Below, in pieces: positions 17,235 to 44,911 of a stretch of 64,000 bases of DNA; within the stretch, counting starts at the first letter, position 1; the number at the start of each line of letters is the position of its first letter. The stretch comes from an uncultured Acidobacteriota bacterium (GTDB lineage: Bacteria > Acidobacteriota > Vicinamibacteria > Vicinamibacterales > UBA2999), in contig CAVRUW010000018.1 of assembly GCA_963724485.1 (NCBI GenBank), positions 66,215-130,214 of the forward strand. The letters are read 5' to 3'. A program made the translations under genes and the position numbers. A model generated the notes under the pieces. That model did not search any database, was not told the origin of the DNA, and saw nothing but the letters and a program-made list of their open reading frames with translations.

Positions 17235-17347
17235 TCGCAAACCTCTCCCTCCGGCGGCGTGTCCTTGCGTAGAAGGAGCATCGGCGGGATGAATCAAGCC
17301 TTCACCGCAGGAGTCTACGACACTTCGATTGCGTCAGATCGGACACC

Positions 17348-19169: not shown

Positions 19170-19436
19170 TCTTCACTCCGAGCGCGCTCGCCATTGTGAC
19201 ATAAGGGTGAAACGCAACTCTCAGCAACAAATTGACAGGACCTTCACATCTCGAATGGAGCCTGAACAGGTACAGCCACGGTCGAGACGGTTCAGGTGGG
19301 TCGCAATAGCTACAGCGAGCAGCGACATCACTTCGGCGCTGTCGTATCCCGACAGGCCGCAAAGTCGAAGCGGTCACATCACTTGCTCTCGCGAGCGGTC
19401 AAATCATGTACCCGCTATATTGTGTTCTGTGGGTGG

Positions 19437-22254: not shown

Positions 22255-23082
22255 CTACTGTCGCCGGAGCGCCGACAACGTGAACTCTCCGTCGTTGAGC
22301 GGCACGTTGTATTCCAGTTTGTCGAGCGTCAGACGCGTCCGGCTCCCGCGTCGCAGGTCGGTCATCTCAAGCTGCCGGGCGGTCCAGATGCCCTGGATGT
22401 TCTGAATGTCTGAATACGAAAGCCGCCGAGCGATCTCGATCTCGTATGTGGTTCTCCATCCGGGCGAACACGTAATCAACCTTGCGCACCCACACGATGG
22501 ACTTTGTGTACTGGGAGGACTTGCCTGGTTTCGGGATTGCTTCGATGCGCCAGCAAGGGACGCCATCGACCGCTTCCTCGCCGAGCATGCGGTAATCGTA
22601 CTGATTGACATCTCGCTCCTCGAGATCCTCGAAGCTGAAGTCGGTGCCGAAAAAGCGCGTCGAGCGGTCCTGGAGCGCTATGCGGCGATCCCGCTCGAGG
22701 GCGGGAGTCCACATCCATTGGTCGGACGCACGATCCGGATTGTTGATCACGAGAAGCGCGACACCCTTCACCTCGGGGGGCGTCGTGAAACGTAGCATTG
22801 ACTTGCTTTGCCCGTGCGCTCCGAGGCGCTCGAAAGTCCACCGTTTGTCGCTGACCTTGCCCCCGGCATCGAAGACTTGGATGAGTCCCTCGTAGCGCTG
22901 AGATTTGGTTGTGCTGCGGCGCTGCGCCTCGGCAATGATCTCTCTGCATCGTCCGACGCGGCGTCGACGCGACCGCTCCCGAGCGGTCCATGCATCGCCA
23001 CGGTAGATGCTATCAACAGCGATACCATGTGCAGCCTGCGTACCAACAGCGGCGTGTTCGCTCGATGCCGATGCATCCTCAT
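22255..23082 (-). CDS. Outer-membrane lipoprotein-sorting (LolA-like) protein; frame broken near 22445-22455 and 22938-22950
   Basis: A signal-like region MVSLLIASTVAMHG..DAASDDAE (ORF 22768..23082) is followed by EIIAEAQRRS...WMWTPALERDRRI...FFGTDFSFEDL...CWRIEAIPK (ORF 22367..23098). The third piece, YEIEIARRLSYSDIQNIQGIWTARQLEMTDL...LNDGEFTLSAL (ORF 22255..22611), is in a further frame. Confidence 0.65.
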
Positions 23083-23141
23083 ACCCGATCCCTCCCACGA
23101 GCCATGCCGAGAATCGCGACCCTAGCTCGATGACTGCGCGC

Positions 23142-25694
23142 CTATTCGTACTCGAGCGCCTCGACGAGAGACCCGCGCACGGCCGACTCCGCAGGCCAGA
23201 CGGCGGCTACCCCGGCGGCCGCCAACATCGCCGGCACGAGCATCCCCATCACCTCGACCGGGAACTGGTAAGCGAGACGCATCCCGGCCAAGTCGAGACG
23301 AACGATTTCCAGCGTGTAATACAGGTTCACGGCACCGAGCCCGCACCCCAGCACGAGGCCAATCGCCGCGATGGCGAGCGCCTCCATCCAGATCGTTCGC
23401 CTGATCTGCCAATGACGTCCGCCCACCGCACGAAGCACGCCAAGCTCTCGCCGGCGATCCGTGATCGAGACGGTCAGCGTGTTCACGATTCCCAGGATCG
23501 CCACGAGTACGGCAACCGCGATCTGTACTGACGACAGACTGAGCCACTGATTGGTGAGCCTGAGGATGTAGTCCTTCAACTCGCGATTGGTGAGCACAAA
23601 GACCTGCTGTTCCCCGGCAAAGCGGCTCAGGATCCGGTCCTTCACGTGGAGCGGATTTACGGTGGCCGCAACATAGACACGGAAGGCATTCGCTGAATCG
23701 TCGTGCCAATACTGGGCGAACAGCGCGCGGTCCATGATGATCGAGCCCTGCTGCTCCGAGAAGTCAACAACGATTCCGACGATCGGCAGCCGGATGACTC
23801 CGAATGGCGCCGCGAGCTCGATCTGTTCGCCGAGGCTCAAGCGCTGAAGCTGCGCGAGATTCTCCGAAACCATCAAGCCCTTCCCTTCAGCAGTGAGCCG
23901 ATGCATCGCTACCGGATCACCTGCCACGGCCTGGCGGCGTGTCGTCTGCGCGACGCTGGCGACATCAATCGCGACGATCATGACCGGTGTGTCCCTGAAA
24001 GCGATACGGGTGTCGCGTACCAGCTGCACACGTTCGACGCCGGCAATCGCTGCCAACGTTGGGGCAATAGTCGCCGGCAGGCGCGTCGTCCGATCGGTTA
24101 CACTTTCCGACGGAAGAACGATGAGATCAGGATTGAGCGTTGCATCCATCCACCCGATGATGGAGTCGTAGCTCGCTCGAGCAGTGCCAGCGAAGCCCAC
24201 CGCGGCCGCCAGCGACAACATCAGCGCCGCGACGCTTGCCGACGTGCGTCGCGGTGCCTGGATCAAGCTGTCTGCCGCAAGTGCACCCTCGACCGGCCGC
24301 ACCACTTTGAGAATCGGCCGGAGCGCCTTGGCCAGGAAGAGCGAGAGGAGCGGCGTTAACAGGAGCGCGACGAGAATGGCGAGGAAGTAGCCAACGTAGA
24401 ATACGGTTCTCGATCCGACATTCGTCAGGCACACGACTGAGATCACTGCCGCAGCGACCGCTAGAATCGCACGCCAACGATTCTCACCGGCCGATAGCAC
24501 CTGATACTTGCCTTTCTGCAGCGCTTGAACCGGATCCACTCTTGCAGCGTTCCACGCAGGGACAAGGGCCGCCACCATGCTCGTCCCCACGCCAATCCCG
24601 AGTGCCCCGGCAAGAAGCACTTTGCTGGCTGCCAACTCGCCAACGTGCTGAGCCACACCATAGACGTCGGCGATCAGCATGCCGACCGAGGCGGCAATGG
24701 CTCTCGCGATCAGGATTCCTAGTGCAACACCCGCGACCGAGCCGATCAGCCCGGTGACAGCACTCTCACCGAGAAACAACCAACGGATCTGGCCGCGGGT
24801 CGCGCCAAGCGCCCGCAGAATACCGATCTCATTGCGGCGTTCGGTCACCGCGATCGAGAACGAGTTGTAGATGATAAACATGCCGATGAAGAGAGCGAAC
24901 AGACTAGAAATCGTCATCATCAGCGCGTAGGAAGAGAGCAGCGCCTCGAATTGCTGCCCGCGAGCCGACGGTGGCGCAACCTGAAAACCAGGTCCGAGCA
25001 GCGACTGGAGCTCACGCTGGCTCTCGGGGATTGTTCGTTGCGCCTTGACCGCGAGATCAATGCGATCGAACTTCCGACCGCGGCCGAACATCTTCTGGGC
25101 CGCGTAGATGTCCATGATGGCGAGGTTGCCACCAAACGCACTCGTCAATCCGGACGGCTTCATGATGCCGCGAATGACGAACGCTTTCTCGCCGACCGCT
25201 GTGCTGAGCACGAGTTCGCCGCCAACGTCGAGGCCATTCCTCTCAGCGAACGGTTGTGTGACGATGAGCGAATCGGGCTGCGCGAGAAAGACGAGTGGAT
25301 CGTCGACTATGGCCTCTTCACCACTCTCGAGATCGTAGTCACGCAGGCTGCGGTCTCCTGTCATGTCTACGCCGAGCACGAGAATGCTGCCTTGCTCTTT
25401 GTCTTTCAGGTTCACAACGGATTCGATGACGGGAACGGCAACCTGCACGGAGGGGACGCTCTGCACGCGATCGAGAACGTCCTCATCGAAGCCGCTTTCG
25501 CCGGCCGTGACCTGCAGCTGGGTCTTGCCCGCAATGCGATCGACCGTCTCAGAAAAACCGCGCAACACGCTCTGGTTTGCCACGTGCATCCCCACGAAGA
25601 CGGAGACGCCGAGCACGATGCCTGCCGTCGTGAGTAGGGATCGCAGCACGTGCCTGCGGAAATATGGCCAGCTAATAAGTTTGAGCAGAATCAT
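23142..25694 (-). CDS. ABC transporter permease, duplicated FtsX/MacB-type (YbbP-like)
   Basis: 850 aa with two FtsX modules, each with a large extracytoplasmic domain (EIGILRALGATRGQIRWLFLGE and ELGVLRAVGGRHWQIRRTIWME). 4-nt overlap with the upstream ATPase gene. Confidence 0.85.
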   Translation of the reverse strand: MILLKLISWPYFRRHVLRSLLTTAGIVLGVSVFVGMHVANQSVLRGFSETVDRIAGKTQLQVTAGESGFDEDVLDRVQSVPSVQVAVPVIESVVNLKDKEQGSILVLGVDMTGDRSLRDYDLESGEEAIVDDPLVFLAQPDSLIVTQPFAERNGLDVGGELVLSTAVGEKAFVIRGIMKPSGLTSAFGGNLAIMDIYAAQKMFGRGRKFDRIDLAVKAQRTIPESQRELQSLLGPGFQVAPPSARGQQFEALLSSYALMMTISSLFALFIGMFIIYNSFSIAVTERRNEIGILRALGATRGQIRWLFLGESAVTGLIGSVAGVALGILIARAIAASVGMLIADVYGVAQHVGELAASKVLLAGALGIGVGTSMVAALVPAWNAARVDPVQALQKGKYQVLSAGENRWRAILAVAAAVISVVCLTNVGSRTVFYVGYFLAILVALLLTPLLSLFLAKALRPILKVVRPVEGALAADSLIQAPRRTSASVAALMLSLAAAVGFAGTARASYDSIIGWMDATLNPDLIVLPSESVTDRTTRLPATIAPTLAAIAGVERVQLVRDTRIAFRDTPVMIVAIDVASVAQTTRRQAVAGDPVAMHRLTAEGKGLMVSENLAQLQRLSLGEQIELAAPFGVIRLPIVGIVVDFSEQQGSIIMDRALFAQYWHDDSANAFRVYVAATVNPLHVKDRILSRFAGEQQVFVLTNRELKDYILRLTNQWLSLSSVQIAVAVLVAILGIVNTLTVSITDRRRELGVLRAVGGRHWQIRRTIWMEALAIAAIGLVLGCGLGAVNLYYTLEIVRLDLAGMRLAYQFPVEVMGMLVPAMLAAAGVAAVWPAESAVRGSLVEALEYE

Positions 25695-26536
25695 AAAGGG
25701 CGCAACCGAGGCGTCGATCCGCCACGCTGACTCCGCACAAATGCGCTCCGGCTGACGTCATCGACGATGCGCCCGTCGCGGAGGGTGATGGTTCGCTCGC
25801 AGCTCTCGGCAACCTTCGAGTCGTGGGTCACAATCACGACAGTCGAACCGAGTTCGGCGTGCAGAGTCCCCATCAGCGTGAGAATCTCTTCGCCGGTGTG
25901 GGAGTCGAGATTGCCCGTAGGCTCGTCCGCCAACAGCACCGGCGGAAACACTGATAGTGCCCGCGCGATGGCCACGCGCTGACGCTCACCCCCGGACAAC
26001 TCCTCGGGCACGTGCTGCAGGCGATGCCCGAGCCCAACGAGGGTCAGCAGCTTGCTTGCGCGTTCGTGAACCTTGCGCCGCGGCCATCCGCGCAAATGCA
26101 GCGGAAGACCGACGTTCTCCAAGGCGGTCAACGTCGGCAGCAAATTGAAGAACTGAAAAATGAATCCAACCTTGTCTCGTCGCACGCGCGCGAGCTCGTC
26201 GTCTGAGAGCCCAGACAGCGCTTCGCCATCAACGACCACGACGCCACTGGTCGGACGGTCAAGGGCACCGACAAGATTCAGCAACGTCGACTTTCCGGAG
26301 CCCGACGGCCCGACGATGGACACCATCTGGCCGCGCGGAATCGCGACTGTGACAGCGTCGAGCGCAACGACGCGGCGCTTGTCGTCGAACTGCTTGGTGA
26401 CTGCATCAAGCCGAATCGCGAATTCCGACCGAGCCGCCACCTCGCGTTGATCATGCTCAATGCCTTCGGCGCGTCGCGAAAGTGGCTCCATGCTGCTCAA
26501 TGACTGAGCCTCAGCATGCCGCGCGTCATGCGGCAT
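25691..26536 (-). CDS. ABC transporter ATP-binding protein (MacB/LolD/YbbA-like)
   Basis: Walker A GPSGSGKST, Q-loop, signature LSGGERQR, Walker B LLADEPT. The start may instead be at 26491. Confidence 0.9.
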   Translation of the reverse strand: MPHDARHAEAQSLSSMEPLSRRAEGIEHDQREVAARSEFAIRLDAVTKQFDDKRRVVALDAVTVAIPRGQMVSIVGPSGSGKSTLLNLVGALDRPTSGVVVVDGEALSGLSDDELARVRRDKVGFIFQFFNLLPTLTALENVGLPLHLRGWPRRKVHERASKLLTLVGLGHRLQHVPEELSGGERQRVAIARALSVFPPVLLADEPTGNLDSHTGEEILTLMGTLHAELGSTVVIVTHDSKVAESCERTITLRDGRIVDDVSRSAFVRSQRGGSTPRLRPL

Positions 26537-26752: not shown

Positions 26753-28948
26753 TTAGATCCTACTCGTTGCGTAGGCGCCTACTCGCGCAGTGTCGACCTG
26801 CCAATCGCGATACCACGCCAGAAGGGATTGTCCACCGTCCTTAGGGGGGCTCACGATGTTGTGCCAGGCGATGAACGCGTCGCCCTGGGCACCAATCATC
26901 ACGAGACCACTCAGGCCCCGGGAGCGCTTCAGTACTTGCAACGCCTGCGCAGGGGTTTGCACAATCGGGCTTGCCACATTGAGCGAGGTGTTCACCGACA
27001 CTTCTACACCCAGCCGCCGTCCCATTGCCCTGAGGTACGCGTGGGTGAATGCATCGATTTCCGCTCGTCCGATCTGGACCCTCGACGTCCCGTCGTGATG
27101 CACAACGGCGGGGATGAGCGCGGCGCTCTCGGCGCGTACCGGTGCGGTCAGGACCATGTAGTCATACGCGTTGTGGTTGTCGTCCGACGCGCCAGGCGAT
27201 AGCGCGAAATGGCGCTGCGCCGCTTCATACGTCGCCATCGGGGCGAGCGGGCGTATCCGCTCGCGGAACTTGACCAGCCGATTGATGTTGGCCAGCGTAT
27301 TCGGGTTGCATGGGTTGGCCACGATGCTGCGGTGGCCGAGCGCGCGCGGGCCGGTTTCTGCCGTACCGTGGAAGAGTCCCAGGATGCCGTCATGCGCCAC
27401 GACGTAGGCAAGCCAATCGGCGATCTGTTCTCTTTCCTCCACGCGCCCCACGTTGCCCAAACACATGCTGGAGATTTCCTCCGTGCTCTCGAGGGCTTGA
27501 CGAATGCTCGCGGTGGAGGCGGGCATACCGCAGTAGAAGGCGTGGCGAAGAGGCTCGCCTGGCGGTACACCGTTTGACAGCGCGAAATTGTACGCGGCAC
27601 CCATCGCCACGCCAGCATCACCGGGCGTCGGCGGAACCCACAAATGCAGACGGGCTTTCATACCCAGGTAGCGTTGATAATACGCCGTGTCGAAGTGCTC
27701 GAGCAGGCGCATGTTCGCGACGCCGTTGAGCGCAGTACCGCCGGTCATGACCAGCTTGTCGCTTCTCGTCGTGCGAATCAAATAGTCCACAACGTGGAAG
27801 ACGAGGTCCTCGAACAGCAATTGTGTCGCCGCGGCTTTGTCCAGACGCTCCTGTGTATGGGGCGAGTGCTTTATGTCTTCAACCTGCAAGACGGCATCCG
27901 GATTCCACATATCCTCCGGCGGGATGGGTTCGCCGAGGACTTCTGTGAGCGCCACGTTGTACGGTCGGCGCTCACCCGCGTTGTGCCAGTTCATCATGGC
28001 CCGATTGGCGTAAACCTGGCCGGCGCTGCCGAAATAGAACAGCTGACGCAACTGCCGATAATAAGGATTGGTAAGTCGGTTGTTGTTCCCCCAGGCAGAG
28101 GCGCCCATATATCGTCCTTCGCTACTCAGCGACGTCCACCCTCCCTGCGTCGAGCTGATGATGCCATACAGCGCACCCAACGAGTCCACCGCGCTCTCGT
28201 TCTTCCGAATGCATCTCAGCTTGTTATCCTGTGTCACGTACAGCGATATCGAGCCGTTATCGCCGTAGCCATCGAGCACAGTCACCATGACCGGGTCCTT
28301 ACAGCGATTGAATGGAGAGACACCATAGGAAAAATAGGCGTGATTGTCGTGGTGACACATGGCAATGATGGGCGCCGGCCCATCCAGATCGAGTTGTCGT
28401 CCGAAACGCTGCGGCGCCTTCGCCGCCTGCATCACGTGATGGCCATTGAATTTGGGTGACGAATCCCGGTGGAGCAGCGGCAAACTGAAGGGGAGATGTT
28501 CCGCAAACCCGCGCAGGCCAAACGGAATGAAGTCAATGTAATTCCAGCTCGCAAGGTATGCGTGAATATCACCGGGTCGGAGACCCATGTCACTCAGGCG
28601 CCTTCGTAAAGACTCGACGCTCTGTTCGGGGTAGCCGCTGTAATGTTTGATGCCGGTGTAGCGCTCTTCTTCGTCATTGCAAATGAGACGAATTCCGTGC
28701 TTCAGCGATGCCTCGACAAGGGCCACACCTGAATTGTGACCGGCGGGTCCAATACCCAGCAGGTAAACGCGCTCGTTTCGCTGCAGCTTTTCCTGCATTG
28801 AGGTAATGCGCTCGCGCGCGTACCGGCTGTTCGAGCGGTAGAAGTTCCGGTTGGCGAAGAACCGCGTCGCGAGCGGTTGAGCCGCTTTGAAGAGCCACTT
28901 TCCAAGGTAAGGATGAGCAGGTCCGAATTCGCCGAACACGCGCGACAT
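26753..28948 (-). CDS. Carbamoyltransferase (NodU/CmcH/TobZ family), long form
   Basis: YLLGIGPAGHNSGVALVE...EEERYTGIKHYSGYP (ASKHA/Kae1-like N-domain), followed by a YrdC-like C-domain. GGAGG lies 7 nt upstream of the ATG at 28948. Confidence 0.85.
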   Translation of the reverse strand: MSRVFGEFGPAHPYLGKWLFKAAQPLATRFFANRNFYRSNSRYARERITSMQEKLQRNERVYLLGIGPAGHNSGVALVEASLKHGIRLICNDEEERYTGIKHYSGYPEQSVESLRRRLSDMGLRPGDIHAYLASWNYIDFIPFGLRGFAEHLPFSLPLLHRDSSPKFNGHHVMQAAKAPQRFGRQLDLDGPAPIIAMCHHDNHAYFSYGVSPFNRCKDPVMVTVLDGYGDNGSISLYVTQDNKLRCIRKNESAVDSLGALYGIISSTQGGWTSLSSEGRYMGASAWGNNNRLTNPYYRQLRQLFYFGSAGQVYANRAMMNWHNAGERRPYNVALTEVLGEPIPPEDMWNPDAVLQVEDIKHSPHTQERLDKAAATQLLFEDLVFHVVDYLIRTTRSDKLVMTGGTALNGVANMRLLEHFDTAYYQRYLGMKARLHLWVPPTPGDAGVAMGAAYNFALSNGVPPGEPLRHAFYCGMPASTASIRQALESTEEISSMCLGNVGRVEEREQIADWLAYVVAHDGILGLFHGTAETGPRALGHRSIVANPCNPNTLANINRLVKFRERIRPLAPMATYEAAQRHFALSPGASDDNHNAYDYMVLTAPVRAESAALIPAVVHHDGTSRVQIGRAEIDAFTHAYLRAMGRRLGVEVSVNTSLNVASPIVQTPAQALQVLKRSRGLSGLVMIGAQGDAFIAWHNIVSPPKDGGQSLLAWYRDWQVDTARVGAYATSRI

Positions 28949-29142
28949 AGATCTGCCTCCGCAACAAATCATTCCGTTGCTGGTGTTAGTAAACCCGCGC
29001 ACCTCTAGTGCTCAGCAAGGGGCGTAGGGGGCTTCGACGAGCTCGTGGCTGCGCTGGAGCCCGACGCTGTCTATTGCTGAGCCAGGTCTTACTTACTTCC
29101 TTCTGTTCTAAGGTTGCACAGTTTGTTCACGATAAAGTGTTT

Positions 29143-30021
29143 ATGGCACTCCCCAGTACGTTCTTACTGTCTAAGCCTGTAGACGGCGCTGAGCCCATCC
29201 GGCTCGCTATCGCCAGCAAGCACCGCATGCTCCGCGCTGCGCTTCGCCTTCTGGTCGAAACGGACGACAGAATCAATGTCATAGCGGAAATGGACTCGGT
29301 CGCTGCTCTCTTCGCATTCGCGCAGATCGACCATCTGGACATCATCCTGCTTGACGAGGACTTGGCCGACCCCGCTCCAGAGGCGTTTTGGATAGCTCTG
29401 CAATTGAGTGCGCCCACTGCACGCCTGCTCCTCTTGCACGAGGGAGCCGCGCGGGCGTTTCCCAGCACGCTTGCGAGATTCCGGGGCCTCCGAATGGTCT
29501 CAAAAGGAGATTCCCCGGAAGCGCTGCTCGACGCCATCCGCAGCGCTCACGCCGGAAAAACGCTCGATTCCGCCTCCGATGCCAACAAGTCGTTCCAAGC
29601 CGCCGTGCGGCTGACGGGAGATGCGAAACAACGGGTGGTGAAAACCGGCACTTCAGCGCAACGACAGACCATCTCCGACAAGCGCGTACTCGCTGTCCTC
29701 GAAACGGTCGAAAACGACCTGCAGAAATCCGACTCCATCGACACCCTTGCCGCAAAGGTCGGCATCGGCGCTTCGCGGCTACGCCACTTGCTGCGCGATC
29801 TCGTCGGAACGTCACTGAGTAAGTTTCGGACAGAACGCCGGTTGCAAGTCGCGGCGCGTCTTCTCGCGCATAGCCACAAGCGAGTATCTGAAATCGCATA
29901 TCAAGTCGGGTTTGCTGATCCTGCAAACTTTGACAAAGCGTTTCGAAAACGTTTCGGCCTATCGCCCACCCGTTATCGACAATCGAGCTCCGATGGAGCC
30001 GCCTCGCGGGATGCTTCGTAA
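29143..30021 (+). CDS. Transcriptional regulator with an atypical receiver-like N-domain and an AraC/XylS HTH C-domain
   Basis: The C-terminus LAAKVGIGASRLRHLLRDLVGTSLSKFRTERRLQVAARLL..SEIAYQVGFADPANFDKAFRKRFGLSPTRYR is a canonical AraC HTH pair. The N-domain has a REC-like layout, but IASKH replaces the DD pocket and H replaces the conserved T. Confidence 0.8.
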   Translation: MALPSTFLLSKPVDGAEPIRLAIASKHRMLRAALRLLVETDDRINVIAEMDSVAALFAFAQIDHLDIILLDEDLADPAPEAFWIALQLSAPTARLLLLHEGAARAFPSTLARFRGLRMVSKGDSPEALLDAIRSAHAGKTLDSASDANKSFQAAVRLTGDAKQRVVKTGTSAQRQTISDKRVLAVLETVENDLQKSDSIDTLAAKVGIGASRLRHLLRDLVGTSLSKFRTERRLQVAARLLAHSHKRVSEIAYQVGFADPANFDKAFRKRFGLSPTRYRQSSSDGAASRDAS

Positions 30022-30127
30022 TCATTTGAAGGCGAATGCCCTGTGCGAACTGGGCAGGTGCCCCTGCGTCGGCGACCGCGTGAACTCGAACCGTCCCGTG
30101 TTTCACGGCTTTTATTTCCTTCTGCTT

Positions 30128-30982
30128 TCAGAAGCGAATCACGCTGTTCACGTACAAGCCGCGCAGGGCAACGGAGCCGGCATCGGCGTTCCGCCGATAG
30201 TTCACGTCCAGCGTGCGATAGCCTGCCTGGATGCCCACGTTCTGCGTAAACGTGAAGAGACCCGAGGCGTCGAAATCAATCGATCGCCCGCCGCCGCCCC
30301 ATCCATCGAAGAGCTCTGGCAGTGGAAACCACGTTAGCTCTCCCGTCAGCGCGACCCGGCGGTGCAGGTAACCCCGGGCGACTCCGCCGACAACGGGAAT
30401 GAACCCGTTGGTCACCGATGATTCCACGCCCAGGGATCCACTGCTCACCTCGGCGCCGACTCTCACGTATCTCACTTCGCCGATCACACCAGCAAACCCG
30501 CGGGGGCGCGAGATGAGGTCGTACTCGTACCCGAAATACGAGGTGTGAAAAGTGAGGCTGGCGCTCACCGGAATGCCGATGTCGAAGCTGGTTCGCCCGA
30601 ACGAAATGGTTCGTCGCAGCGTTCGTTCCGCCTCGAAGCTCGTCGGCACGTACCCCACCCGAATCTTGTGGCGCGGCGCGGGCTTCAACACGACGCGCAC
30701 CTGCGGCAGCCGCTTTCGAAGCAGACCGAGGTCGCCGACGAAATCGATGTCGGACGCTTCGATTCCCAGCGTGCCCGAAGAAATCACAACGTCGGGAGAC
30801 GCGTTCCACAGCCCGACAGCAATCTCTGCGCGGTAGGCCTCACTCCTCTCATCGCTCGGTGCCGCGGGACCCAATGCTTGTGCGTTCGCTCGCGGCACGA
30901 CCGTCATGGCAATCGCGAGAACGAGCCCGGCGGAGCCGAGGGGGGGCGGAAGGCGCCCGCGGAGTCCTCTGAACAGTTCCAT
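30128..30982 (-). CDS. Predicted outer-membrane beta-barrel protein, last gene of the PKS operon
   Basis: Signal-like MELFRGLRGRLPPPLGSAGLVLAIAMTVVPRANAQA, amphipathic beta-strand periodicity and a C-terminal ...YVNSVIRF. An alternative start exists at 31033. Confidence 0.55.
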   Translation of the reverse strand: MELFRGLRGRLPPPLGSAGLVLAIAMTVVPRANAQALGPAAPSDERSEAYRAEIAVGLWNASPDVVISSGTLGIEASDIDFVGDLGLLRKRLPQVRVVLKPAPRHKIRVGYVPTSFEAERTLRRTISFGRTSFDIGIPVSASLTFHTSYFGYEYDLISRPRGFAGVIGEVRYVRVGAEVSSGSLGVESSVTNGFIPVVGGVARGYLHRRVALTGELTWFPLPELFDGWGGGGRSIDFDASGLFTFTQNVGIQAGYRTLDVNYRRNADAGSVALRGLYVNSVIRF

Positions 30983-31139
30983 AAACACCTCTTGGGTGGT
31001 GGCGCGGTTTCTCTTTGCCTTCCCCTTTGCCATGTGCGTATCCAAGTCGGCGTTCGGACTGCACGGAACTAAAACCGCGCGGGCCCACCGACGGGCGCCG
31101 CCAAGCCAGCAAGGCGTTACCGAGCCTCGCATGCGGGGC

Positions 31140-32478
31140 TCAGAACGTTCCGACACCAGCGGGCGGTGGAGCGACGAAGCCACGGCTGATGAACTGCTGG
31201 AAGTAGTTGCCGAGCACGCGGTCATCGACCGGAGAGCAGCGAATCGAGCTGTCGGCGAGACCCACGAGCGTGTTCTGGCAGTCGAAGTTCGGCAAAAATT
31301 TCATGACTTTGTCCCCTTCTCCGCTGATGCTCAGCGAGAACACGGGGACAAGCGACGACACGACGTCTTCGCGGGACGGGCTTCGCCGCGTCAGCAACTC
31401 GGATAGCCACGAGTCATATGGCAGGGATTTCAGCCGGTAACCGAAGGTCCGCATCCAATCGGCAACTTGCCCGAGGCGGACGCGGCGCGGATTGGCAAGA
31501 TGAAAAATCTTGCCCAAAGAATCCTTCCGGCCCGCGAGATGCACGATCGCCTTGCTGATATAGTCGACTGGCGTCATATCCGTCTCGTCGAAGCGGAATA
31601 CCGGGGCCGCTTCGAGCTCGATCCAAGACCTCAGCATGCGTGAGGTCACGTCGCTCGGGTTCCAGGCACCGGTTTCGCTGTGTCCGGTAATGAGCCCGGG
31701 ACGATAGATGCACACCGGTAGGCCCCTGGCGCGCGCGGCCTGCACCAGCTTGTCCGCAACCCATTTGCTCTGGACATAGCCGCCGTACAGCGAGCCCCCG
31801 TGATCGAGCGTATCGTCTTCACGAACGACGACGAGACCGGACATCCCGATCAGCGGGAATACACCAAGACTCGACACGAAGTGCACCGGCTTCAGCTTGA
31901 TTCGAGTTGCCAGCCGCAGGAGCTCCAGCGTGCCGAGCACATTAGGCGCTTTTAACCGCTCGTATGGATAGATCCAGTTCACGCTCGCGCCGCTGTGATA
32001 GATGACGTCGATGGTGCTCGCCAGCTGCGCTGCCAATTGCGACGAGAGGCCGAGCCCCGGCATGCCGAGGTCGCCGGGGACCGGCACGATTCGCGCGCTG
32101 AAATCGTCGTGCCAGATCGAGTACCCCTGCAGCGTCTGCCGCAGCCGATTTCGAGCCTCGTCTGCGCTTCGGCGCGCACGAGGCAATGGATATCGGCGCT
32201 GGTCCGATCGAGCAGTTCCGAAGCAGGAACGCGCCAAGAAAGCCGGTCGCGCCCGTCAACAACACGTGGCGTGGTTGATCGGCCGATCGTTCGAAGGGCA
32301 GGCCTTCGGGATCGATGGACGCGTCGAGCATCGCTTCACCACTCAGCGTCGCGACATTGACCGCGAGATGGTCCACGTTGAGAGATGACTTCCCGACGTG
32401 CTTTTGCAGCAGGCGGGTGAGCAATGCGCGCTTCGCCTCCGCCGAAAGGCGGTCGAGCGCTGTCGGGGTGGGCTTCAT
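31140..32478 (-). CDS. Stand-alone thioester reductase (terminal-domain type, SDR); frame broken twice (about 32161-32179 and 32211-32224)
   Basis: HVLLTGATGFLGAFLLR / ELLDRTSADIHCLVRA / SADEARNRLRQTLQGYSIWHDDFSARIVPVPGDLGMPGLGLS...VIYHSGASVNWIYPY lie in three frames. Joined, they match the thioester-reductase domain pattern (GATGFLG...CLVRA...GDL..p.LGL). Its ATG overlaps the PKS stop (ATGA). Confidence 0.8.
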
Positions 32479-35400
32479 CCTCCCGTCTCCTCGGGTTCCT
32501 CCTCATCGTGAGCCACTGCTTCCTCGTTGAGCATGTTCTTCAGCAGCGAGTCCACGGCCGCGTCGGAGAGCTGCTCCATCTTCGATAGCAGCTCTGCGGC
32601 AGTTCCGTGTTCGACCGACGACGAGAACGTCACGTGTTCAGCAAGCGGAACGGCGTCAACCGTGGCTGCCATGGCTGGCACCGGCAGCTGGCTCGCGAGA
32701 CGAGCGCCCAGTTGGGAGAGACTCGGGCCTTGAAGAAGCGCTGTGACTGGAATGGTCAGCTCCAGGTCGACCTCGACGCGGTTCTTCAGCTCGACGGCCA
32801 TCAACGAGTCGATGCCCAGCCTCGTCAGCGGCTGATGCACATCGATCTTCGACGGCGAGCATCGCAGGACTCGTGCAATTTGCTCCACGAGGAATGCCTC
32901 GATCATCCCTTGACAGTCCTCTGGTGCGGCCGCGAGCAGCTTGTCGCGCGTCAGTCCGTCCTTGGGCCGCTGCGCCTTGGCCGATGATTTCTGATCCACC
33001 TCGGCCGCAAGCGCCGAGAGGATGGGCGGTGAAACCAGACTCAGCAGCTTGCCCCACTCGACGGAAAGGGCGATCACCTGCGGTGAATCGAGCTGAAGCG
33101 CACGTTCCAGAAGCTTCATGCCCTGAGCCGGTGAGAACGGGTGAATCCCCTGCTGCATCAGGCGCCTGGTGATGTCCGGCTGCGCGGCGAAGCCGACCTC
33201 GGCCCAGAGACCCCAATTGATCGAGAGGCCAGGAAGTCCGCGAGCGCGGCGATGGTGCGCCAGCACATCCAGGAACGTATTGGCCGCGACGTAGTTGCCC
33301 TGGCCCGGTGACGCCAGCACCGACGCCACAGACGAGAAGAGCACAAAGAGGTCGAGCGGCTTGTCGAGCGTCAGTGTATGGAGATTCCAGGCGCCGTACA
33401 CCTTCGGCGCCATCACGCGCTGGAACCGGTCCTGATTCATTTGAAGCAGGATCCCGTCGTCGAGGACTGCCGCGAGGTGAATGATACCCCGCAACGGCGG
33501 CATCGTCCCGTCGATGTCGTCGATCACGCGAGCGATTTCCTGCGTGTCGGCGACGTTGGCCCGGGCAACCACCACAGACGCGCCGCGCTTCTGCATTGCG
33601 GCCAACGCTTCGTGGGCTGCCGCCGACGTGGCACCGCTCCTGCCCACGAGCACGAGGTGGCGCGCTCCCCTCTCGACCATCCATTGGGCGAGGACCAGAC
33701 CGAGACCGCCAAGTCCACCCGTCACGAGGTAGGTCGCGTCGGATCGGAACGTGACCGGGCGAGGCGATGGCGGAGCGACCAGGAACTCCTTCTCATCCAA
33801 CGTGATGACGACTTTGCCGATGTGTTTCGCCTGAGCCATGTAGCGAAAGGCGTCGGGTGCCTGCGACAACGGAAAGATCTGAAGCGGAAGCGGCTTCAAG
33901 CTGCCGTCGACAAAGCGGTCGAGCACCTCCCGCAGCATGTCTCCGCAGAATGCCGGTCGGGACAGGAACATGCGGGCCAGGTTGATGGCGGAGAAGGACA
34001 GGTTCTTGTGGAATTCGCGAAGACCGAGCGGATTGTCCTGCAGGATATCGGCCATGCCGATTTCGAGGAACCGGCCGCCGGGACGCAGCGTCGCCAGGCT
34101 CCTGGGGATGAATTCTCCTGCCAGGGAGTTCAGGACAACGTCTACGCCTTCTCCGTTGGTGATTCGCATCACCTCGTCGGCGAACTCCAGCGACCGCGAA
34201 TCCATGACATGTCGAACGCCCTGCGCCTTGAGGAATTCCCGCTTTTCGGAGGTTCCGGCCGTGGCGTAGATCTCCGCACCGACCTGCTTCGCGATCTGAA
34301 TCGCGGCCTGTCCGACGCCGCCGGCCGCCGCATGGATCAACACGCGCTCGCCCCTACTCAACCTGCCGAGGTGATGCAGCGCGTAGTACGCGGTCATGAA
34401 CGTGATTGGGATCGTGACCGCTTCCTCGAAACTGAGATGGGCCGGCTTGCGGGCGACGAGCGCGATGTCGGTCGTGACGAACGACCCAAGGCAGGACGGC
34501 GCTAGCGCCACGACGTCGTCGCCTGGCTTCAGGTGATCGACGCCCGCACCACACCTCACGATCGTTCCGGCGCATTCCCAACCCAGATCGAGCGACTGCT
34601 CGAATACCGGCGGGATGAGGCCCATGGCCACGAGAACGTCGCGAAAGTTGAGGCCGACGGCGCGGATCTGGATCTGTACCTGGCCCGGCCCGGGCTCCTG
34701 GTGTGTGGTGCTTCGCAGCGTGAGATTGTCGAGGATCCCGGCTGTGGCGATCTCCAGCCGGAACGGCTCGCTTGCCGGGACCGATCGTCGCTTTTCGTCT
34801 GCGGCTTCGGGCGAATGCCGCACCACACGCGGCACCCATCGCTTGCCGTCTCGAAATGCAATTTGATCTTCCCGATCGCCGGACAACTGCAGCTCCTGGA
34901 ACAGTGCCTCGATCGCTTCAGGTGTCGCCGACGAGCTTAGATCTACTCTCGTGCAGCGAAGCTCCGGATGCTCGATCCCGATAACCCCCGCCACGCCCCA
35001 GAGCGGCGATTGTGCGATAGAAACGGGCGCGATCGTGTCACCAGGGGCCTGCGTTCCCACCGTGACAAACCACAGCCGGGGAACTCTCGTCCGGTCGAGA
35101 TCAGCCAACGCGTGCACGAGGTTCAATGCGCTGAGGCATCCAACGTCCTGGGCCTTCTCGATCGAACTGAGCGTATCCATTTCGTTGGACGACGAGTCCG
35201 CAGCCCACAGGTGCAGAATGCCAGCGCACGGTGAGCCGTCGGCGTCACAGGCTGTGCGACGAGTTGCCGGTAGTCCTCCGGCCGGGTCGGGTTGATCTGA
35301 AAGTGGGAATCCCCCAGCACGGCGTACGTTTCACCGGGGAACACGACAACACAACTGTCGCCACGTGCGCTCAGAAGACTCTGCAGTTCCGGACCGATCC

Positions 35401-38400
35401 GGCTGTCGCTGAAGATTATCCAGCGCTTCGGCTCTTCCGGCTTGTTGACCTCCTCGCTTCGTGCTGGCTGTGTGCGCGGCGCGGGCTGCCACTGAATCTC
35501 ATAGATCCAGTCGGCAATCGCACTCGCCGATGCATCGCGCCCGACGCGCTGCAGGCTGAAGCCGAGCGCCTCGAGAACAACGCGGCCATCTTCGTCAATC
35601 AGGAAGATATCGCCTTCGAGTGTGTCCGTGCTTCCCTGCGCTGGCGACCGAAGCACGGCATGGCTCCAGAACCCCGCACGCGGACGCTCGTGCAAGCGCA
35701 AAGTCTTGAGACCGACGGGAAGAAAGATGCTTCCTTCGGTCAACCCCAAGCCTTCTCTCGGTAGCGCCGCCGCCAACGCCTGAAAGGAGGCGTCGAGGAA
35801 AGCCGGGTGGACGTGATAACTGGCGGCTTCCGCTTCGACCACGTCCGAAAGGCGCAGTTGGCCGATCGCTTCACCATCCCGCCTCCACAGCTGCTCGATT
35901 CCTTGGAACGTGCGCCCGTACTCGAGACCGCGGTCGTGCGTTTCGCGGTAGAAGTCCGGACCCGAGAGGACGCTGGGACAGCGAGCGCGGATCACATCGA
36001 CCGTCTCGTGCGCCGGCGGCTCCGCTGTCGCGCCGCCTCCAATCCCGATGCTGCCGCTCGCGTGGAGCGTCCCGGTCGCCTCCGGTGTCTCGCCCTTCTG
36101 GATGCTGAAGAACTTGAGCGACGCCTCCCCGGGGGTTCCCGGCGAGAGCACGACCTGGACGGTCTTTGACAGATCGTCGGCCAGGAACAGCGCCTTCTGA
36201 AACGCGAGATTCCTCAGCGCATGTGGCCCGTCGCCAAACGCCTCGGACGCGGCAGCGAGCGCCATTTCGCAGAACGCCGCAGCCGGTACCACAACCGCGC
36301 CCTGCACTTGGTGATCGGCGAGGTACGGAAACGAGCGCGTGCTCAATTCCGTCTCCCAGAAATGCGTGCCGAAGTGGGCAGCCGACTTGAAGTACCGATC
36401 GAGAAGCCGATGCCCGCCCTTTCGTGCGCTCTTCGGGGGCGGCCCGTGTCCATTGTTGTCGACCCAGAAACGCTCACGCTGCCAAGCGTAGGCCGGCAGC
36501 GGAACGACGCGACCTCCCGACGGATACAGACGCGTCCAGTCTACGGGGTAGCCGTCAGCGTAGAGCGCGCCGAAGGACTCCAGCATGACGTCTCTGTCGT
36601 TCTCTTCCCGCCGCATCGATGGCAGGACGATCCCCGTCCGACGCTCCGACTGGAGGCACTGAGAGATGGACATCGCCAGCGCGGGGTGCGCGCTCAGTTC
36701 GAGAAAGATGTTGTGCCCGGTGCTTGCCAGCTCGCGGATCGCCCGGACAAAGAACACTGGTTGACGCAGGTTGCGGACCCAGTACTCTGCGTCACATTCG
36801 CGCCCGTCGAGCATCGCCGCCGCTCCGGTCGTCGACATCATCGCAACCGACGCCTGGCGCGGATGGATGTCGCCGAACACTTCGAGCAGCTCGTCGCGCA
36901 ACGGGTCCATCTGCGGGCTGTGCGACGCATAGTCGACCTTCACGAATTGAAAGAAGATCTCCTGGTTCTGCGCCGTCTGGCTGATCTCGCAGAGTGCCTC
37001 CGCCTCACCTGAGATGACCGTCGTCGTCGGGCCGTTGCAGGCGGCGACAACGACGCGGCCTTCGTAACTTTGCAAGCAGCCGCTCGACATTTTCGACCGG
37101 GAGCTCGACGACCGCCATCTTTCCATGTCCCGAGGCCCGGCGCTTGACCACCTGGCTACGACGGCCGATGATTCGCGCTGCCTCATCGAGATTGATGATG
37201 CCGGCGACGTGCGCCGCCGCAACCTCTCCCATGCTGTGACCGACTACGGCATCGGGCTCGATTCCCCACGACCGCCAGAGCGCCGCGAGCGCGACTTGAA
37301 CGGCGAAGAGAACAGGCTGCACGACATCGAGCTCCTCCAAGCGCGAACTCGACGCGTCGGCGCGGATCTCATCGAGCAGGGACCACTCCGCGTCCCGGCT
37401 CAGTGCTTCGGCACATCGCTCGATGGCCTCGCGAAAGATCCGCTCCTCGTCGACCAGCCGCCGGGCCATCCCAAGCCACTGCGACCCCTGCCCTGGACAG
37501 ACGAACACGACTTTTCGCTCGAGATCGGGGATTTGCGCCCGGTAACAACCCCGCGCCGAGTCTCGCGCTTCAAGAAGGCGTCCAGCTGCTCGTTGATGTC
37601 CTCGCAGGAACGCGCGAGCACTGAGAGACGAAAATCGTGGTGCGTCCGTCTTGCGCTTGCCGTGTAGCAGATGTCGTGAAAGGCGGCGCCGTGTCCGTTG
37701 TCATGGAGCACGCGCTCTTGATACACGCGGGCCATCGCATCGAGCGCCTCAGCCGTATGAGCGGAGATCGGCAGGAGGTGCGACTTGCACGAAGAACCCA
37801 CGTCGCGCCCCGTGCTTATCGAACGCTCGGGCGCCTCGGTCAACACCACGTGGGCGTTGGTCCCGGAGATACCAAAGGAGCTCACACCCGCAATCGCCGG
37901 CCCGACGTCAGCCGGCCACGGGGTTGTCTGCTGTTGGACAACGAGCGGAATGTCACTCCATGGAATCTGCGGGTTCGGCTGGTCGAAGTGCAGGCTCGCG
38001 GGAAGCACGTGGTGCTTCAACGCGAGCGCCACCTTGATGATGCCCGCAATGCCGGCCGCGCCCTCGGTGTGCCCGATGTTCGTCTTGACAGAGCCGATGC
38101 GGCACGGTCGATCGGAGGGTCGATCGACGCCGAGGACCGCTCCGAGAGCCATCGCTTCGATGGGATCGCCGACGCTGGTACCCGTGCCGTGCGCCTCCAC
38201 ATACTGCACCTGACTCGGCGCAATACCGCTGTCGTGATAGGCCTGGCGCAGTACCGCCTCCTGTCCCGCGCGACTCGGCGTCATCAGGAGCCCGCCGCTA
38301 CGGCCGTCGTTGTTGACGGCGCTGCCACGGATCACCGCGTAAATCGGGTCGTTGTCGGCAATCGCCTGGCTCAGCCGTTTCAAAACGATGATTCCCATTC

Positions 38401-39112
38401 CATCGCTGCGGACGAAGCCATCGCCCCTGGCATCGAATGCCTTGCAGCGGCCGTCGGCCGCCAGCATCTGCGCCTGACAGAAACCGATGCTCGGTTCCGG
38501 GAGCAGCACGAGATTCGCTCCACCGGCAAGGGCGACGGCAGATTCGCCACTTCGCAGGCTCTGGCAGGCGAGGTGCACAGCGACGAGCGACGTCGAGCAT
38601 GCGGTGTCGACGACGACACTCGGGCCTTCGAGCCCAAGCGCATGCGACAATCGGCCCGACAGAACGCTTCGGGCGTTGCCCGCCGCGAAGTAGATATCGA
38701 TCTGAGAAGGGTGATCGATGATGTTCTCGTAGTCGTTCGTGCACACGCCGACGAACACACCGACTCGTCGACCTACCAGCTGATCCGGCAATTCTCCGGC
38801 GTCCTCCAGCGCCTCCCACGCCACTTCGAGCAGCAGTCGATGCTGCGGATCCATACCGGCCGCTTCACGAGGCGAGATGCCGAAGAAGTAAGGGTCGAAC
38901 TCATCGACGTGATCGAGGAAGCCTCCCCATCGGCTATACAGCTTGCCAGGGATGCCCGGCCGCGGATCGTAAAAATCGGCGATGTCGAAACGATGCGGCG
39001 GGACCTCCGTGATCGCGTCCCGCCCGGTGAGGAGACGCCAGAAAGATTCGGGTTCCTTCGCACCGGGGAAACGACAACCGATACCAGTAATCGCAATCGG
39101 ATCGTGCGCCAT
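32475..39112 (-). CDS. Type I polyketide synthase, single fully reducing module KS-AT-DH-ER-KR-ACP (MAS-like); frame broken at about 37525-37540, 37068-37082 and 35245-35262
   Basis: - Segments: 37400..39112, 37005..37508, 35123..37222 and 32475..35180.
- KS: DTACSTS (Cys about 38597), HGTGT, NIGH.
- AT: PGQGSQW, GHSMGE (37227-37241), YASH (36920-36931).
- DH: [10 protein letters not shown] (about 36313).
- ER: [15 protein letters not shown].
- KR: [26 protein letters not shown].
- ACP: [10 protein letters not shown] (Ser about 32805).
- Start: AAGGAGG lies 11 nt upstream of the ATG at 39112. Confidence 0.9.
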
Positions 39113-39360
39113 TGCGATGCGACCTCCTTACTCCGGAGCACAGCTGCGCCGCTGGTTTTGTCAACCAACCTAACGCGTAAGGGGGAAAACGGAGAGTAGG
39201 GCAAGACCCCTCAATGCAGCAACGGGGAATCCGCGGAAATTTCAGCAATTACTAGGTCAGAACGGCAATATTTCGGAGGGGTCAGGCAAGACTGTAAAAA
39301 AACAAATCTAAGTGTCGATGGTCCGACGTTGCTTTAGGCGAACAACCAGAATGGCGAGTG

Positions 39361-40614
39361 TCAGTGTGATTCGTTTAGCTCAGGCATAACCGAAGCTAGA
39401 AACTCGACGGGCAGTCGCCGAAACCCGCGAAGTGTCGGATCGGTAGTGCGCTCGGGATCGCCTGTCAGGCGCGCGACCGCAACGCGCTTAGCAAGAAGGC
39501 GCAGGAGCACCGCTGCTTCCAGACGCGCTAGCGCGGCTCCCAGGCAGTAGTGAATGCCCGCGCCGAACGCGAGATGATCCGTCGGGTTCCGCTCGATCAG
39601 GAATCGATCGGGCTCAGGGTAGCGAGCTGGATCGCGGTTGGCCGCGCCGAAGAGCAACAGGCATCGCGCGCCTCGCGGAATTGACGCGCCGCCAATTTGA
39701 CACGGCTGAGTCGCGGTCCTGAAGAAACCCTGGATTGGCGCATCGTAACGGAGCACTTCCTCTACGGCCAATGGCACGAGATCCGGCCGCGCTCGCAACA
39801 ACGCCCATTGCTCGGGGTGCGTGGCGAAAGCGACCAGCATATTGCCAAGCAGCCCGGTGGTCGTTTCGTTTCCCGCTACCAGGAGCAGGAGCAGGAACCA
39901 CAAGAGCTCCGTCTCACTGAGTCGGCCGTCCGCACTGGGCTGGAGCAGCTTGGTGACGAGATCGTCGCGCGGCCGCTCGCGTCGTTGCTCGATAAGCCCG
40001 GCCAAATACACCTGAAGCTCCAAGACAGGCTGTGTGACAGGCGAGATCCTCCACTCGTGGTCGGCGCGTCCGGGCCGAAACCCTTCGACGAGCGCGTCCG
40101 ACCAGCTCCGAAACTTCGCGTGATCCTCGGGGGGGATGCCCAGCACCGTGGCGATAACCATCACGGGAAATGGTCCGGCAACGGCGTCGACGAAGTCGAA
40201 GCGTCCACTACCGACCAACGGATCGATCGCATCTACTGCCAGCTGCTCAATCTTTCCCGCCCATGATTCGACCGCGCGCGGCGAGAAGTCCCGCGCCACG
40301 ATCTTCCGCAGCCGGGTGTGATCGGGAGGATCCATTGTGAGCATCATCTGGAGCTTCATCCGCTGATACGCAACACCTTCGGCGGATGACAGCCGGTCGT
40401 GGGCGCGGGCTCCTTCCCACACATGACGATGCCGTGCAAGCACCCAGAGGTTGTATCGAGGAAGCAGGACGGGGGTATCGCAGTCAAGAAGGCGTGCGTA
40501 CGGAGGGTATGGGTTTGCGATCACTTCGGAGGCGAACGGATCGTAGGCCTCGCTGATGGAAACGCCGCGGGGCGGCCCCGATGACATTGAGCGAGATTGT
40601 TTGTCGCGGTGCAT
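39361..40614 (-). CDS. Cytochrome P450
   Basis: 417 aa. I-helix LLLLVAGNETT, ExxR (EEVLRYD) and heme-binding loop FGAGIHYCLGAALAR. Confidence 0.9.
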   Translation of the reverse strand: MHRDKQSRSMSSGPPRGVSISEAYDPFASEVIANPYPPYARLLDCDTPVLLPRYNLWVLARHRHVWEGARAHDRLSSAEGVAYQRMKLQMMLTMDPPDHTRLRKIVARDFSPRAVESWAGKIEQLAVDAIDPLVGSGRFDFVDAVAGPFPVMVIATVLGIPPEDHAKFRSWSDALVEGFRPGRADHEWRISPVTQPVLELQVYLAGLIEQRRERPRDDLVTKLLQPSADGRLSETELLWFLLLLLVAGNETTTGLLGNMLVAFATHPEQWALLRARPDLVPLAVEEVLRYDAPIQGFFRTATQPCQIGGASIPRGARCLLLFGAANRDPARYPEPDRFLIERNPTDHLAFGAGIHYCLGAALARLEAAVLLRLLAKRVAVARLTGDPERTTDPTLRGFRRLPVEFLASVMPELNESH

Positions 40615-40627
40615 CGTCTGTCAACGT

Positions 40628-40726
40628 TCAAATGCGTGCCACGCGAACGACGCACATACGAGCGCCAGAGCAAAAGACTGTTCCGGCGCCGAAGGCCGCG
40701 ACAAATAGCAGAGAGTGGTGCTTCAT
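40628..40726 (-). CDS. Hypothetical 32-aa ORF ending 13 nt upstream of the P450 start
   Basis: MKHHSLLFVAAFGAGTVFCSGARMCVVRVARI. No clear Shine-Dalgarno sequence and no recognisable family. Listed only because of its tight spacing to the P450 gene. Confidence 0.15.
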   Translation of the reverse strand: MKHHSLLFVAAFGAGTVFCSGARMCVVRVARI

Positions 40727-44529: not shown

Positions 44530-44597
44530 TTTGACTTACCGCCAACCTGATCGATGATCCCTCCGTCTAAGTCTACATAGGTAGTCTTCGACGGAGG
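44530..44597 (+). promoter_or_regulatory. padR upstream region: TTGACT box and a nested palindrome (CCTCCGTC-N22-GACGGAGG) overlapping the RBS
   Basis: TTGACT at 44530-44535. An 8-bp perfect inverted repeat at 44560-44567 and 44590-44597, with an inner GTCTAC/GTAGTC half-sites pair. It ends 3 nt before the ATG at 44601. Confidence 0.35.
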
Positions 44598-44600
44598 ACC

Positions 44601-44909
44601 ATGCGACTGACCTACCCGACCACGCTCGTCCTGCAGGCGCTCCTGCACGGCCATCATCACGGCTTCGACATCATGGACGCCACCGGGCTGCCCAGCGGGA
44701 CGGTCTACCCGATCCTCCGCCGCCTCGATGTCGAAGGGCACGTGCGGTCGCGATGGGAAAAAGAAGGGGTTGCGCGTCGCGAACAGCGGCCCCCTCGCCG
44801 CTACTACGAGCTCACTGCCGTCGGACGGCAAACCGCCATCGAAGCCGCGGCACGATACCGGGCGCTGCAGGACATCGCGTCCATGAGCGCGGCGAAATCG
44901 GAGAGATAA
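44601..44909 (+). CDS. PadR family transcriptional regulator
   Basis: 102 aa. LVLQALLHGHHHGFDIMDATGLPSGTVYPILRRLDVEGHVRSRWE is a typical PadR winged helix. Confidence 0.85.
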   Translation: MRLTYPTTLVLQALLHGHHHGFDIMDATGLPSGTVYPILRRLDVEGHVRSRWEKEGVARREQRPPRRYYELTAVGRQTAIEAAARYRALQDIASMSAAKSER

Positions 44910-44911
44910 CC

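Follow-up and report, generated by a model that had tools for sequence, protein, structure and literature searches.

A reducing polyketide synthase, a thioester reductase and a carbamoyltransferase at a putative lipid biosynthesis-and-export locus of an uncultured Acidobacteriota bacterium

We analysed a stretch of 64,000 nucleotides (hereafter, the window) from an uncultured Acidobacteriota bacterium of the order Vicinamibacterales, lineage UBA2999 (GenBank assembly GCA_963724485.1, contig CAVRUW010000018.1, positions 66,215 to 130,214 of the forward strand). The subject is a group of genes around a single-module type I polyketide synthase (PKS), a thioester reductase (TR) and an O-carbamoyltransferase (CT). 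Gene calls are based on the list of open reading frames (ORFs) of the window and on Pfam scans. A preliminary description of this DNA had outlined an orphan cluster at 26753-40726 that comprised a P450, the PKS, the TR, an outer-membrane barrel, a regulator and the CT, and every one of these genes was found at the positions stated there. The features of the locus, in window coordinates, are as follows.

39361..40614, minus strand: P450 of 417 aa, intact (PF00067, E=1e-24)
32475..39112 (6638 nt), minus strand: single-module type I PKS, KS-AT-DH-ER-KR-ACP, 2212 aa once frame-corrected (Pfam)
31140..32478, minus strand: stand-alone TR, 446 aa once frame-corrected (NAD_binding_4, E=4e-55)
30128..30982, minus strand: predicted outer-membrane beta-barrel of 284 aa (AlphaFold2 and Foldseek)
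29143..30021 (ORF from 29008), plus strand: AraC-family regulator with a receiver-like N-terminal domain (HTH_18, E=6e-24)
26753..28948, minus strand: CT of the NodU/CmcH/TobZ/GdmN superfamily, 731 aa, intact (Carbam_trans_N and Carbam_trans_C)
25691..26536, minus strand: ABC transporter ATPase, directly following the CT in the same orientation (ABC_tran, E=5e-33)
23142..25694, minus strand: duplicated MacB/LolCE-type (ADOP-like) permease of 850 aa, intact (two FtsX and two MacB_PCD matches)
22255..23098, minus strand: LolA-like periplasmic lipid/lipoprotein carrier, frame-broken (PF17131 across two frames)
20973..22247, minus strand: DUF1302-like putative outer-membrane protein of 424 aa (weak DUF1302 match)
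19515..20900, plus strand: PaaK/F390-synthetase-like adenylate-forming enzyme, a candidate starter-activating ligase (weak AMP-binding match)
17918..19172, minus strand: Acyl_transf_3 membrane acyltransferase, split over two frames (PF01757 halves in different frames)

The AraC-type gene is divergent and stands between the PKS operon and the CT operon, while the PaaK-like gene is convergent to the ABC, LolA-like and DUF1302-like genes downstream of the CT. The functional unit is thus wider than first outlined: it occupies about 17.9-40.6 kb of the window, and the boundary at 26753 has to be moved to about 17.9 kb.

In the PKS, Pfam detected ketosynthase (KS and KS-C), acyltransferase (AT), dehydratase (DH; PKS_DH_N and PS-DH), enoylreductase (ER; ADH_N/ADH_zinc_N), ketoreductase (KR) and acyl carrier protein (ACP; PP-binding) domains, all far above cut-offs. 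The expected motifs are present as well: DTACSTS, HGTGT, NIGH, GHSMG, YASH, HxxxGxxxxP, [25 protein letters not shown] and LGIDSL. The KR carries an LDD motif, and ER and DH motifs were also found. As sequenced, the PKS is not one uninterrupted frame; three single-base edits restore it. Both the window PKS and its orthologue in Mycobacterium neglectum have GHSMGE and YASH in the AT, and YASH is the methylmalonyl signature of AT domains. A methyl-branched product, raised earlier as a possibility, is on this motif evidence likely.

The enzyme had also been called MAS-like, after the mycocerosic acid synthase of mycobacteria. The term applies to the architecture, not demonstrably to the clade: taking the ranking of KS-AT bit scores against solved structures as a proxy for clade, we obtained 767 for CurL, 737 for PikA and about 709 for DEBS, as against 646-674 for MAS. 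The module may act iteratively or only once. A protein search with the KS returned only proteins shorter than 1000 aa; it was at the level of genome loci that full-length PKS orthologues came to light. Over 2209 aa, the window PKS and the M. neglectum PKS-TR protein share 69.7% identity.

The start codon of the TR overlaps the PKS stop as ATGA, as had been noted. The frame-corrected protein carries the Rossmann motif TGATGFLG and the catalytic YVQSK, and the domain search bore out the reductase assignment along with the ER and KR of the PKS. An orthologue on contig L001, from a sister Acidobacteriota genome (about 93% identical to the window over a large TR fragment), scores 359.5 bits against TIGR01746 (cut-off 213), and its best match of solved structure is MxaA (E=2e-102). 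MxaA is a four-electron reductase that forms primary alcohols. Given the family assignment and this closeness to MxaA, the alcohol proposed earlier as the product of reductive release is likely. The TR was described as detached, which is correct for the window; the separation is lineage-specific, and in mycobacterial orthologues the TR is fused to the PKS.

For the CT, Carbam_trans_N scores 77 bits (cut-off 24) and Carbam_trans_C 144 bits (cut-off 27). Its ORF extends over 26753-29002, and the length of 731 aa assumes a start at M19 (28948). The best sequence matches in the PDB are the O-carbamoyltransferases GdmN, NovN and TobZ. Against the NodU equivalog NF041651 the protein reaches 81 bits where the cut-off is 1000, and it is thus a member of the superfamily only. 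To call it giant is an overstatement: GdmN and NovN have 682-702 aa, and over 100 homologues with lengths of about 725-730 aa (around 727) form a large uncharacterised clade.

A scan of the genome collection with the TR retrieved the sister Acidobacteriota metagenome-assembled genome (MAG; contigs L001 and L014) and 11 loci from Mycobacterium and other Actinomycetota, in which the TR is 70-74% identical. At 9 of the 11 a CT lies directly upstream of a fused PKS-TR gene, and the remaining flanks differ from locus to locus. In M. neglectum (L004, positions 127418-148431 of contig NZ_NVQE01000009), the 749-aa CT ORF overlaps the start of a 2627-aa KS-AT-DH-ER-KR-ACP-TR protein. We found no P450 homologue at the actinobacterial loci, so the P450 hydroxylation suggested earlier is not part of the conserved core. 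The conserved unit in Actinomycetota is the CT and the PKS-TR alone.

An intact, co-directional PKS-TR-CT string was also present on a 96-kb JGI contig and on contig L028 (PKS 2664 aa, TR 463 aa, CT 730 aa). The PKS of this string carries a C-methyltransferase domain. Its methyl branches may come from S-adenosylmethionine, as opposed to methylmalonyl-CoA in the window cluster. This independent operon, together with the nine actinobacterial loci, supports a functional link between the CT and the PKS-TR. The CT and PKS-TR are a recurrent cassette that crosses phyla, and the search of related genomes thus removes the idea that the combination is unique to the window. A chimeric contig or a binning artefact was considered as the source of the 70% identity to Mycobacterium and rejected, as four related contigs share the arrangement.

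The P450 translation contains the heme motif FGAGIHYCLG, which fits FxxGxxxCxG, and the I-helix motif AGNETT. Its nearest solved structures belong to the CYP125 family (E=2e-78), CYP130 and PikC, and it is 96% identical to its counterpart on L001. CYP125-type enzymes oxidise branched alkyl termini; the similarity may serve as a lead to the role of the P450 and as nothing firmer.

The 284-aa protein had no sequence match in Pfam, NCBIfam or the PDB. Its AlphaFold2 model, built with 37 homologues (pLDDT 80, pTM 0.73), is all-beta behind a signal-peptide helix. In Foldseek the model matched the outer-membrane barrels Pla/OmpT (omptin), FadL and OpcA with probability 1.0 and TM scores of about 0.55. 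The C-terminus (...VIRF) ends on an aromatic Phe. The predicted fold supports the earlier reading of this protein as an outer-membrane beta-barrel. Among 47 homologues the one with a name comes from a Vicinamibacterales MAG (Acidobacteriota), and homologues lie beside the same cluster in L001, L014 and L027.

The AraC-type regulator has a weak match to a NarP-like receiver at residues 16-143; by eye, the receiver-like domain is missing the usual acidic pair after beta-1. Directly upstream of the P450, at 41877-44430 on the minus strand, are genes for a LytTR response regulator, a LytS-type sensor (His_kinase) and a TPR/cytochrome-c-like protein, all of them candidate regulators of the cluster. 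Their place in L025 is taken by a different set, one gene with a PAS domain and one with a receiver domain. The interval between the P450 and the LytTR gene (positions 40615-41188 and, on the plus strand, 41189-41698) contains an ORF of 169 aa without a family match and a gene-poor stretch of lower GC content, about 1.2 kb long.

Among the genes downstream of the CT, the permease is 96% identical to its counterpart on L014, and its lolCE/ADOP-like NCBIfam matches are below cut-off. The next but one gene is named DUF1302-like only, since PF06980 gives 22.1 bits against a gathering cut-off of 23.2. Sets of DUF1302, DUF1329 (LolA-like) and RND genes have a published link to the trans-envelope handling of hydrophobic compounds. 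In the related contigs L026 and L027, LolA-like, MMPL and DUF1302 genes and the barrel come after the TR; a LolA-like gene is located 3' of the TR in L026, and in L027 the cluster ends with a gene that has a faint DUF1302 match. The envelope lipid suggested earlier fits this setting, with a MacB-type exporter, a LolA-like protein and a DUF1302-like barrel following the CT and a further barrel following the TR.

The PaaK-like enzyme has matches to DVU_1553, F390-related, FlxY and PaaK families, all below cut-off, and an 80%-identical homologue adjoins the P450 in L027. The preliminary description had found no loading module, fatty-acyl-AMP ligase (FAAL), thioesterase or phosphopantetheinyl transferase (PPTase). 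We saw neither a thioesterase nor a PPTase among the window ORFs scanned, a scan that was not exhaustive. The PaaK-like protein at 19515-20900 is an adenylate-forming enzyme that the description had missed, though not a FAAL by family. The Acyl_transf_3 orthologue sits between P450 and PKS in L026 and L027. Genes that flank the P450 and PKS in relatives (an fn3-like/PAS region and Acyl_transf_3) are about 20 kb away in the window, at the opposite end of the island (window 15761-19230 compared with L025 5235-6958 and L026 6132-7434); close relatives thus differ by a rearrangement or circular permutation of the locus.

Taken together, we judge the chances to be about even that this is a real and recently functional locus for the biosynthesis and export of a reduced polyketide lipid, with PKS, TR and O-carbamoyltransferase as its conserved core. 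In the pathway that we propose, the single KS-AT-DH-ER-KR-ACP module, working once or iteratively, would extend an acyl starter by methylmalonyl units and fully reduce each of them. The starter would be activated by the PaaK-like ligase or drawn from fatty-acid synthesis. The MxaA-like reductase would then free the ACP-bound acyl chain as a primary alcohol, which the GdmN/TobZ-type CT would turn into an alkyl carbamate with carbamoyl phosphate and ATP. In the Acidobacteriota version, the CYP125-like P450 and the Acyl_transf_3 enzyme could add optional hydroxylation and acylation, and the MacB-type ABC pump, the LolA-like carrier and the two beta-barrels would carry the lipid to the outer membrane. 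For the two- or three-gene core, the simplest product to assume would be a 1-O-carbamoyl, methyl-branched alkanol. Gene order, domains, motifs, synteny across phyla and purifying selection are direct observations; for the substrates, the release as alcohol, the carbamoylation of the PKS product and the export, we infer from these.

The integrity of the genes bears directly on this interpretation. As sequenced, the PKS is divided over four reading-frame segments and the TR over three. We located the break sites by aligning the window to the sister contig L001, which is 95% identical, and to three further long-read contigs. The survey of the whole window combined codon-usage tiling with Pfam checks of split domains (a GC3 frame-plot was too noisy, GC1 also being high). 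The breaks are as follows.

37531 and 35253, PKS: a 1-nt deletion at each, in the window alone
37071, PKS: one additional A in CAAAG, common to the window and L001 and absent from L025 and L026
32221 and 32172, TR: a 1-nt deletion at each, again in the window alone
22598 and 22946, LolA-like gene: two 1-nt deletions relative to L014
17918-19172, Acyl_transf_3 gene: at least one break, at about 18.6 kb
near 6.78 kb, rsmE (16S rRNA methyltransferase, PF04452; gene 6467-7313, minus strand): profile positions 3-72 and 72-164 in different frames

Five single-base edits give a PKS of 2212 aa and a TR of 446 aa with zero internal stops and intact catalytic motifs. Over the 2197 PKS codons compared between the window and L001, there are 115 non-synonymous and 135 synonymous differences, and the ratio of non-synonymous to synonymous substitution rates (dN/dS, Nei-Gojobori) is 0.27. 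The ratio is 0.27 for the intact CT, 0.27 for the 850-aa permease and 0.21 for the P450. The PKS value argues against a long-dead relic. If the shared break at 37071 were an ancestral lesion, the gene would have evolved neutrally since the split, which the dN/dS rejects; the break is therefore better read as a systematic consensus error or a recurrent slip.

Some suspected breaks were discarded. Those at 49-50.7 kb are two separate genes, lptE and holA, and overlapping ORF pairs at 4.4-6.1, 9.3-10.9, 42.6-43.9 and 60.8-62.7 kb are ordinary neighbours or spurious ORFs. Programmed frameshifting at the shared CAAAG was also rejected, as the run has three A and, by eye, the remaining four breaks share no motif. 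We further observed that L001 (the end of contig_1919) and L014 (the start of contig_46911), both from MAG MFD04850.bin.2.364, terminate inside the cluster. Aligned to the window, L001 spans 40733-30165 and L014 32522-21477; both cover the TR and barrel genes, and there the identity to the window is 95% for L001 and 89-94% for L014. The overlap suggests that two haplotypes exist here or that the assembly graph was broken at the locus, and the contig ends hint at strain heterogeneity and a poor consensus.

Probably, then, the frame breaks are a sequencing artefact of long-read consensus. The alternative is that they are real: this lineage would be losing an accessory island, in which the PKS, TR, LolA-like and acyltransferase genes have become pseudogenes. 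We find this clearly less probable yet worth weighing. In its favour, and against a functional locus, 8 of the 9 breaks fall within 17.9-39.1 kb and hit only some of the cluster genes, a pattern that also fits recent decay, while core genes of the window (AlaRS, LeuRS, DnaJ, FabD, PlsX and others) are intact. The break at 37071 is common to the sister genome, and the indels lie in runs of at most 2-3 nt, away from long homopolymers. Against decay, the PKS dN/dS is equal to that of intact neighbours and far from 1, nonsense codons and larger deletions are lacking, and every motif is preserved. The housekeeping gene rsmE, the site of the sole break detected outside the island, is broken too. Sister contigs of the same assembly type show different indels at other sites. 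Indels of 1 nt are numerous in the related ENA long-read contigs L025-L027, where a P450 and MMPL genes are among those affected. That the contigs of the sister MAG end within the locus points to difficulty of assembly.

Even for a locus with intact genes, the chemistry could differ from our proposal. Long CTs of the same family occur in an NRPS (non-ribosomal peptide synthetase)/TauD/P450 cluster and beside a fab operon, so that family membership alone does not fix the acceptor, and the argument for the CT acting on the PKS product is purely one of synteny. Two of the 11 actinobacterial loci (L007 and L008) are without an upstream CT, and neither the PPTase nor the source of the starter unit was identified. 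The similarity patterns are discordant as well: the window CT shares 69% identity with the CT of L028 and 50% with the mycobacterial one, whereas the PKS-TR is about 70% identical to Mycobacterium and 38-45% to L028. All of these observations weigh against the carbamate pathway. The last of them can be turned around, since discordant identities imply that horizontal transfer has put the partnership together anew, and the case for a functional link is the stronger for it; the pattern indicates xenologous replacement inside a partnership that is itself conserved.

Two readings of the enzymes compete with the one proposed. The TR might stop at the aldehyde, or the CT might target a hydroxyl that the P450 introduces or an unrelated glycan of the envelope, its adjacency to the PKS reflecting co-regulation. 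The occurrence of the long CTs in other contexts, the loci without a CT and the placement of the window CT in a different transcription unit from the PKS, with the AraC gene between, would agree with this. Nevertheless, we think it improbable: in Actinomycetota only CT and PKS-TR are conserved together, their ORFs overlapping or abutting between variable flanks, and no P450 homologue was found at these loci, nor any glycan genes among the L004 ORFs scanned. Moreover, L028 has PKS, TR and CT co-directional, and the TR is closest to the alcohol-forming MxaA. Slightly less remote, though still unlikely, is that the PKS is a true member of the MAS/Pks5 clade of iterative mycobacterial lipid synthases, with a mycocerosate-type chain of several methyl branches as its product. 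Its domains come in exactly the order of MAS, the AT is of the methylmalonyl type and the closest full-length relatives are in Mycobacterium. The KS-AT scores given above favour CurL and the PikA and DEBS modules over MAS, however; a FadD28-type FAAL and a PapA-type acyltransferase partner are missing, and the chain would be released by a reductase, not by acyl transfer.

To return to the carbamate pathway, its wider form would be that PKS-TR-CT cassettes are a hitherto unrecognised, horizontally mobile pathway of soil Acidobacteriota and environmental mycobacteria, which supplies methyl-branched long-chain alkyl carbamates for the outer membrane or the mycomembrane. We offer this tentatively and with considerable doubt. 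Each kind of enzyme here is familiar, and soil MAGs commonly contain orphan PKS clusters. What lifts the locus above the average is its conservation across two phyla, its minimal two-gene form and a culturable Mycobacterium carrier, and the frame breaks temper this. In full-text searches of the literature we found no characterised pathway that combines a CT, a PKS and a reductase, as the preliminary description had anticipated, and no description of methyl-branched long-chain alkyl carbamates as a bacterial lipid class.

If the proposal is true, a primary carbamate on a polyketide alcohol would be new head-group chemistry for bacterial envelope lipids, tied to a compact two-gene cassette with a history of transfer between phyla. 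The cultured carrier, Mycobacterium neglectum CECT 8778, makes the prediction directly testable. For genome mining, a long CT next to a highly reducing PKS and a TR provides a synteny rule for a family that annotation now leaves as anonymous 'T1PKS'. The case also calls for caution, as frame breaks in long-read MAGs can mimic the pseudogenisation of large biosynthetic genes.

Some further features of the window and its relatives were recorded. At 44571-47548, on the plus strand, a second duplicated MacB/ADOP-type permease (931 aa) comes right after a PadR-family regulator and stands apart from the ABC system of the cluster. A canonical fatty-acid synthesis operon (yceD, plsX, fabD, fabG, acpP, fabF) lies at 58421-63596 on the minus strand, about 20 kb from the PKS. 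On the Planctomycetaceae contig L030, a homologous long CT is located directly upstream of an rpmF-plsX-fabD-acpP-fabF operon. A tRNA scan detected no tRNA genes and gave no clue to an integration site.

The closest known systems compare with the cluster as follows. Like MAS and the MAS-like PKSs of mycobacteria, the window PKS combines KS-AT-DH-ER-KR-ACP in one polypeptide with a methylmalonyl-type AT, and its closest full-length homologues are mycobacterial. MAS-like PKSs make envelope lipids, the product type also predicted here. The differences are that the window KS-AT is, by the score ranking, nearer to modular cis-AT PKSs (CurL, PikA, DEBS), and that the MAS chain is handed to PapA5, whereas the window chain would be released by the TR, with a CT as partner instead of a FAAL.

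With MxaA, the CpkC TR and the heterocyst-glycolipid reductase, the window TR shares the TIGR01746 family, the TGxxGxxG and YxxxK motifs and a position after an ACP. It differs from MxaA-type R domains in being a separate protein with an ATGA overlap. In heterocyst glycolipid synthesis, it is the hydroxyl group of a reduced polyketide alcohol that receives the decoration; the logic here would be similar, with a carbamate and not a sugar as the predicted decoration.

The two-domain Carbam_trans_N/C structure is common to the window CT and to GdmN (geldanamycin), NovN (novobiocin), TobZ (tobramycin) and NodU. Identity to these enzymes is low, and the predicted acceptor is a lipid alcohol as opposed to a macrolactam or a sugar. 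Finally, AmeABCD-type and DUF1302/DUF1329/RND systems resemble the export part in having LolA-like and DUF1302-like proteins beside an inner-membrane transporter, which in L027 is itself MMPL/RND-like. The window differs from them in that its pump is a MacB/LolCE-type ABC transporter and its DUF1302 match is below threshold.

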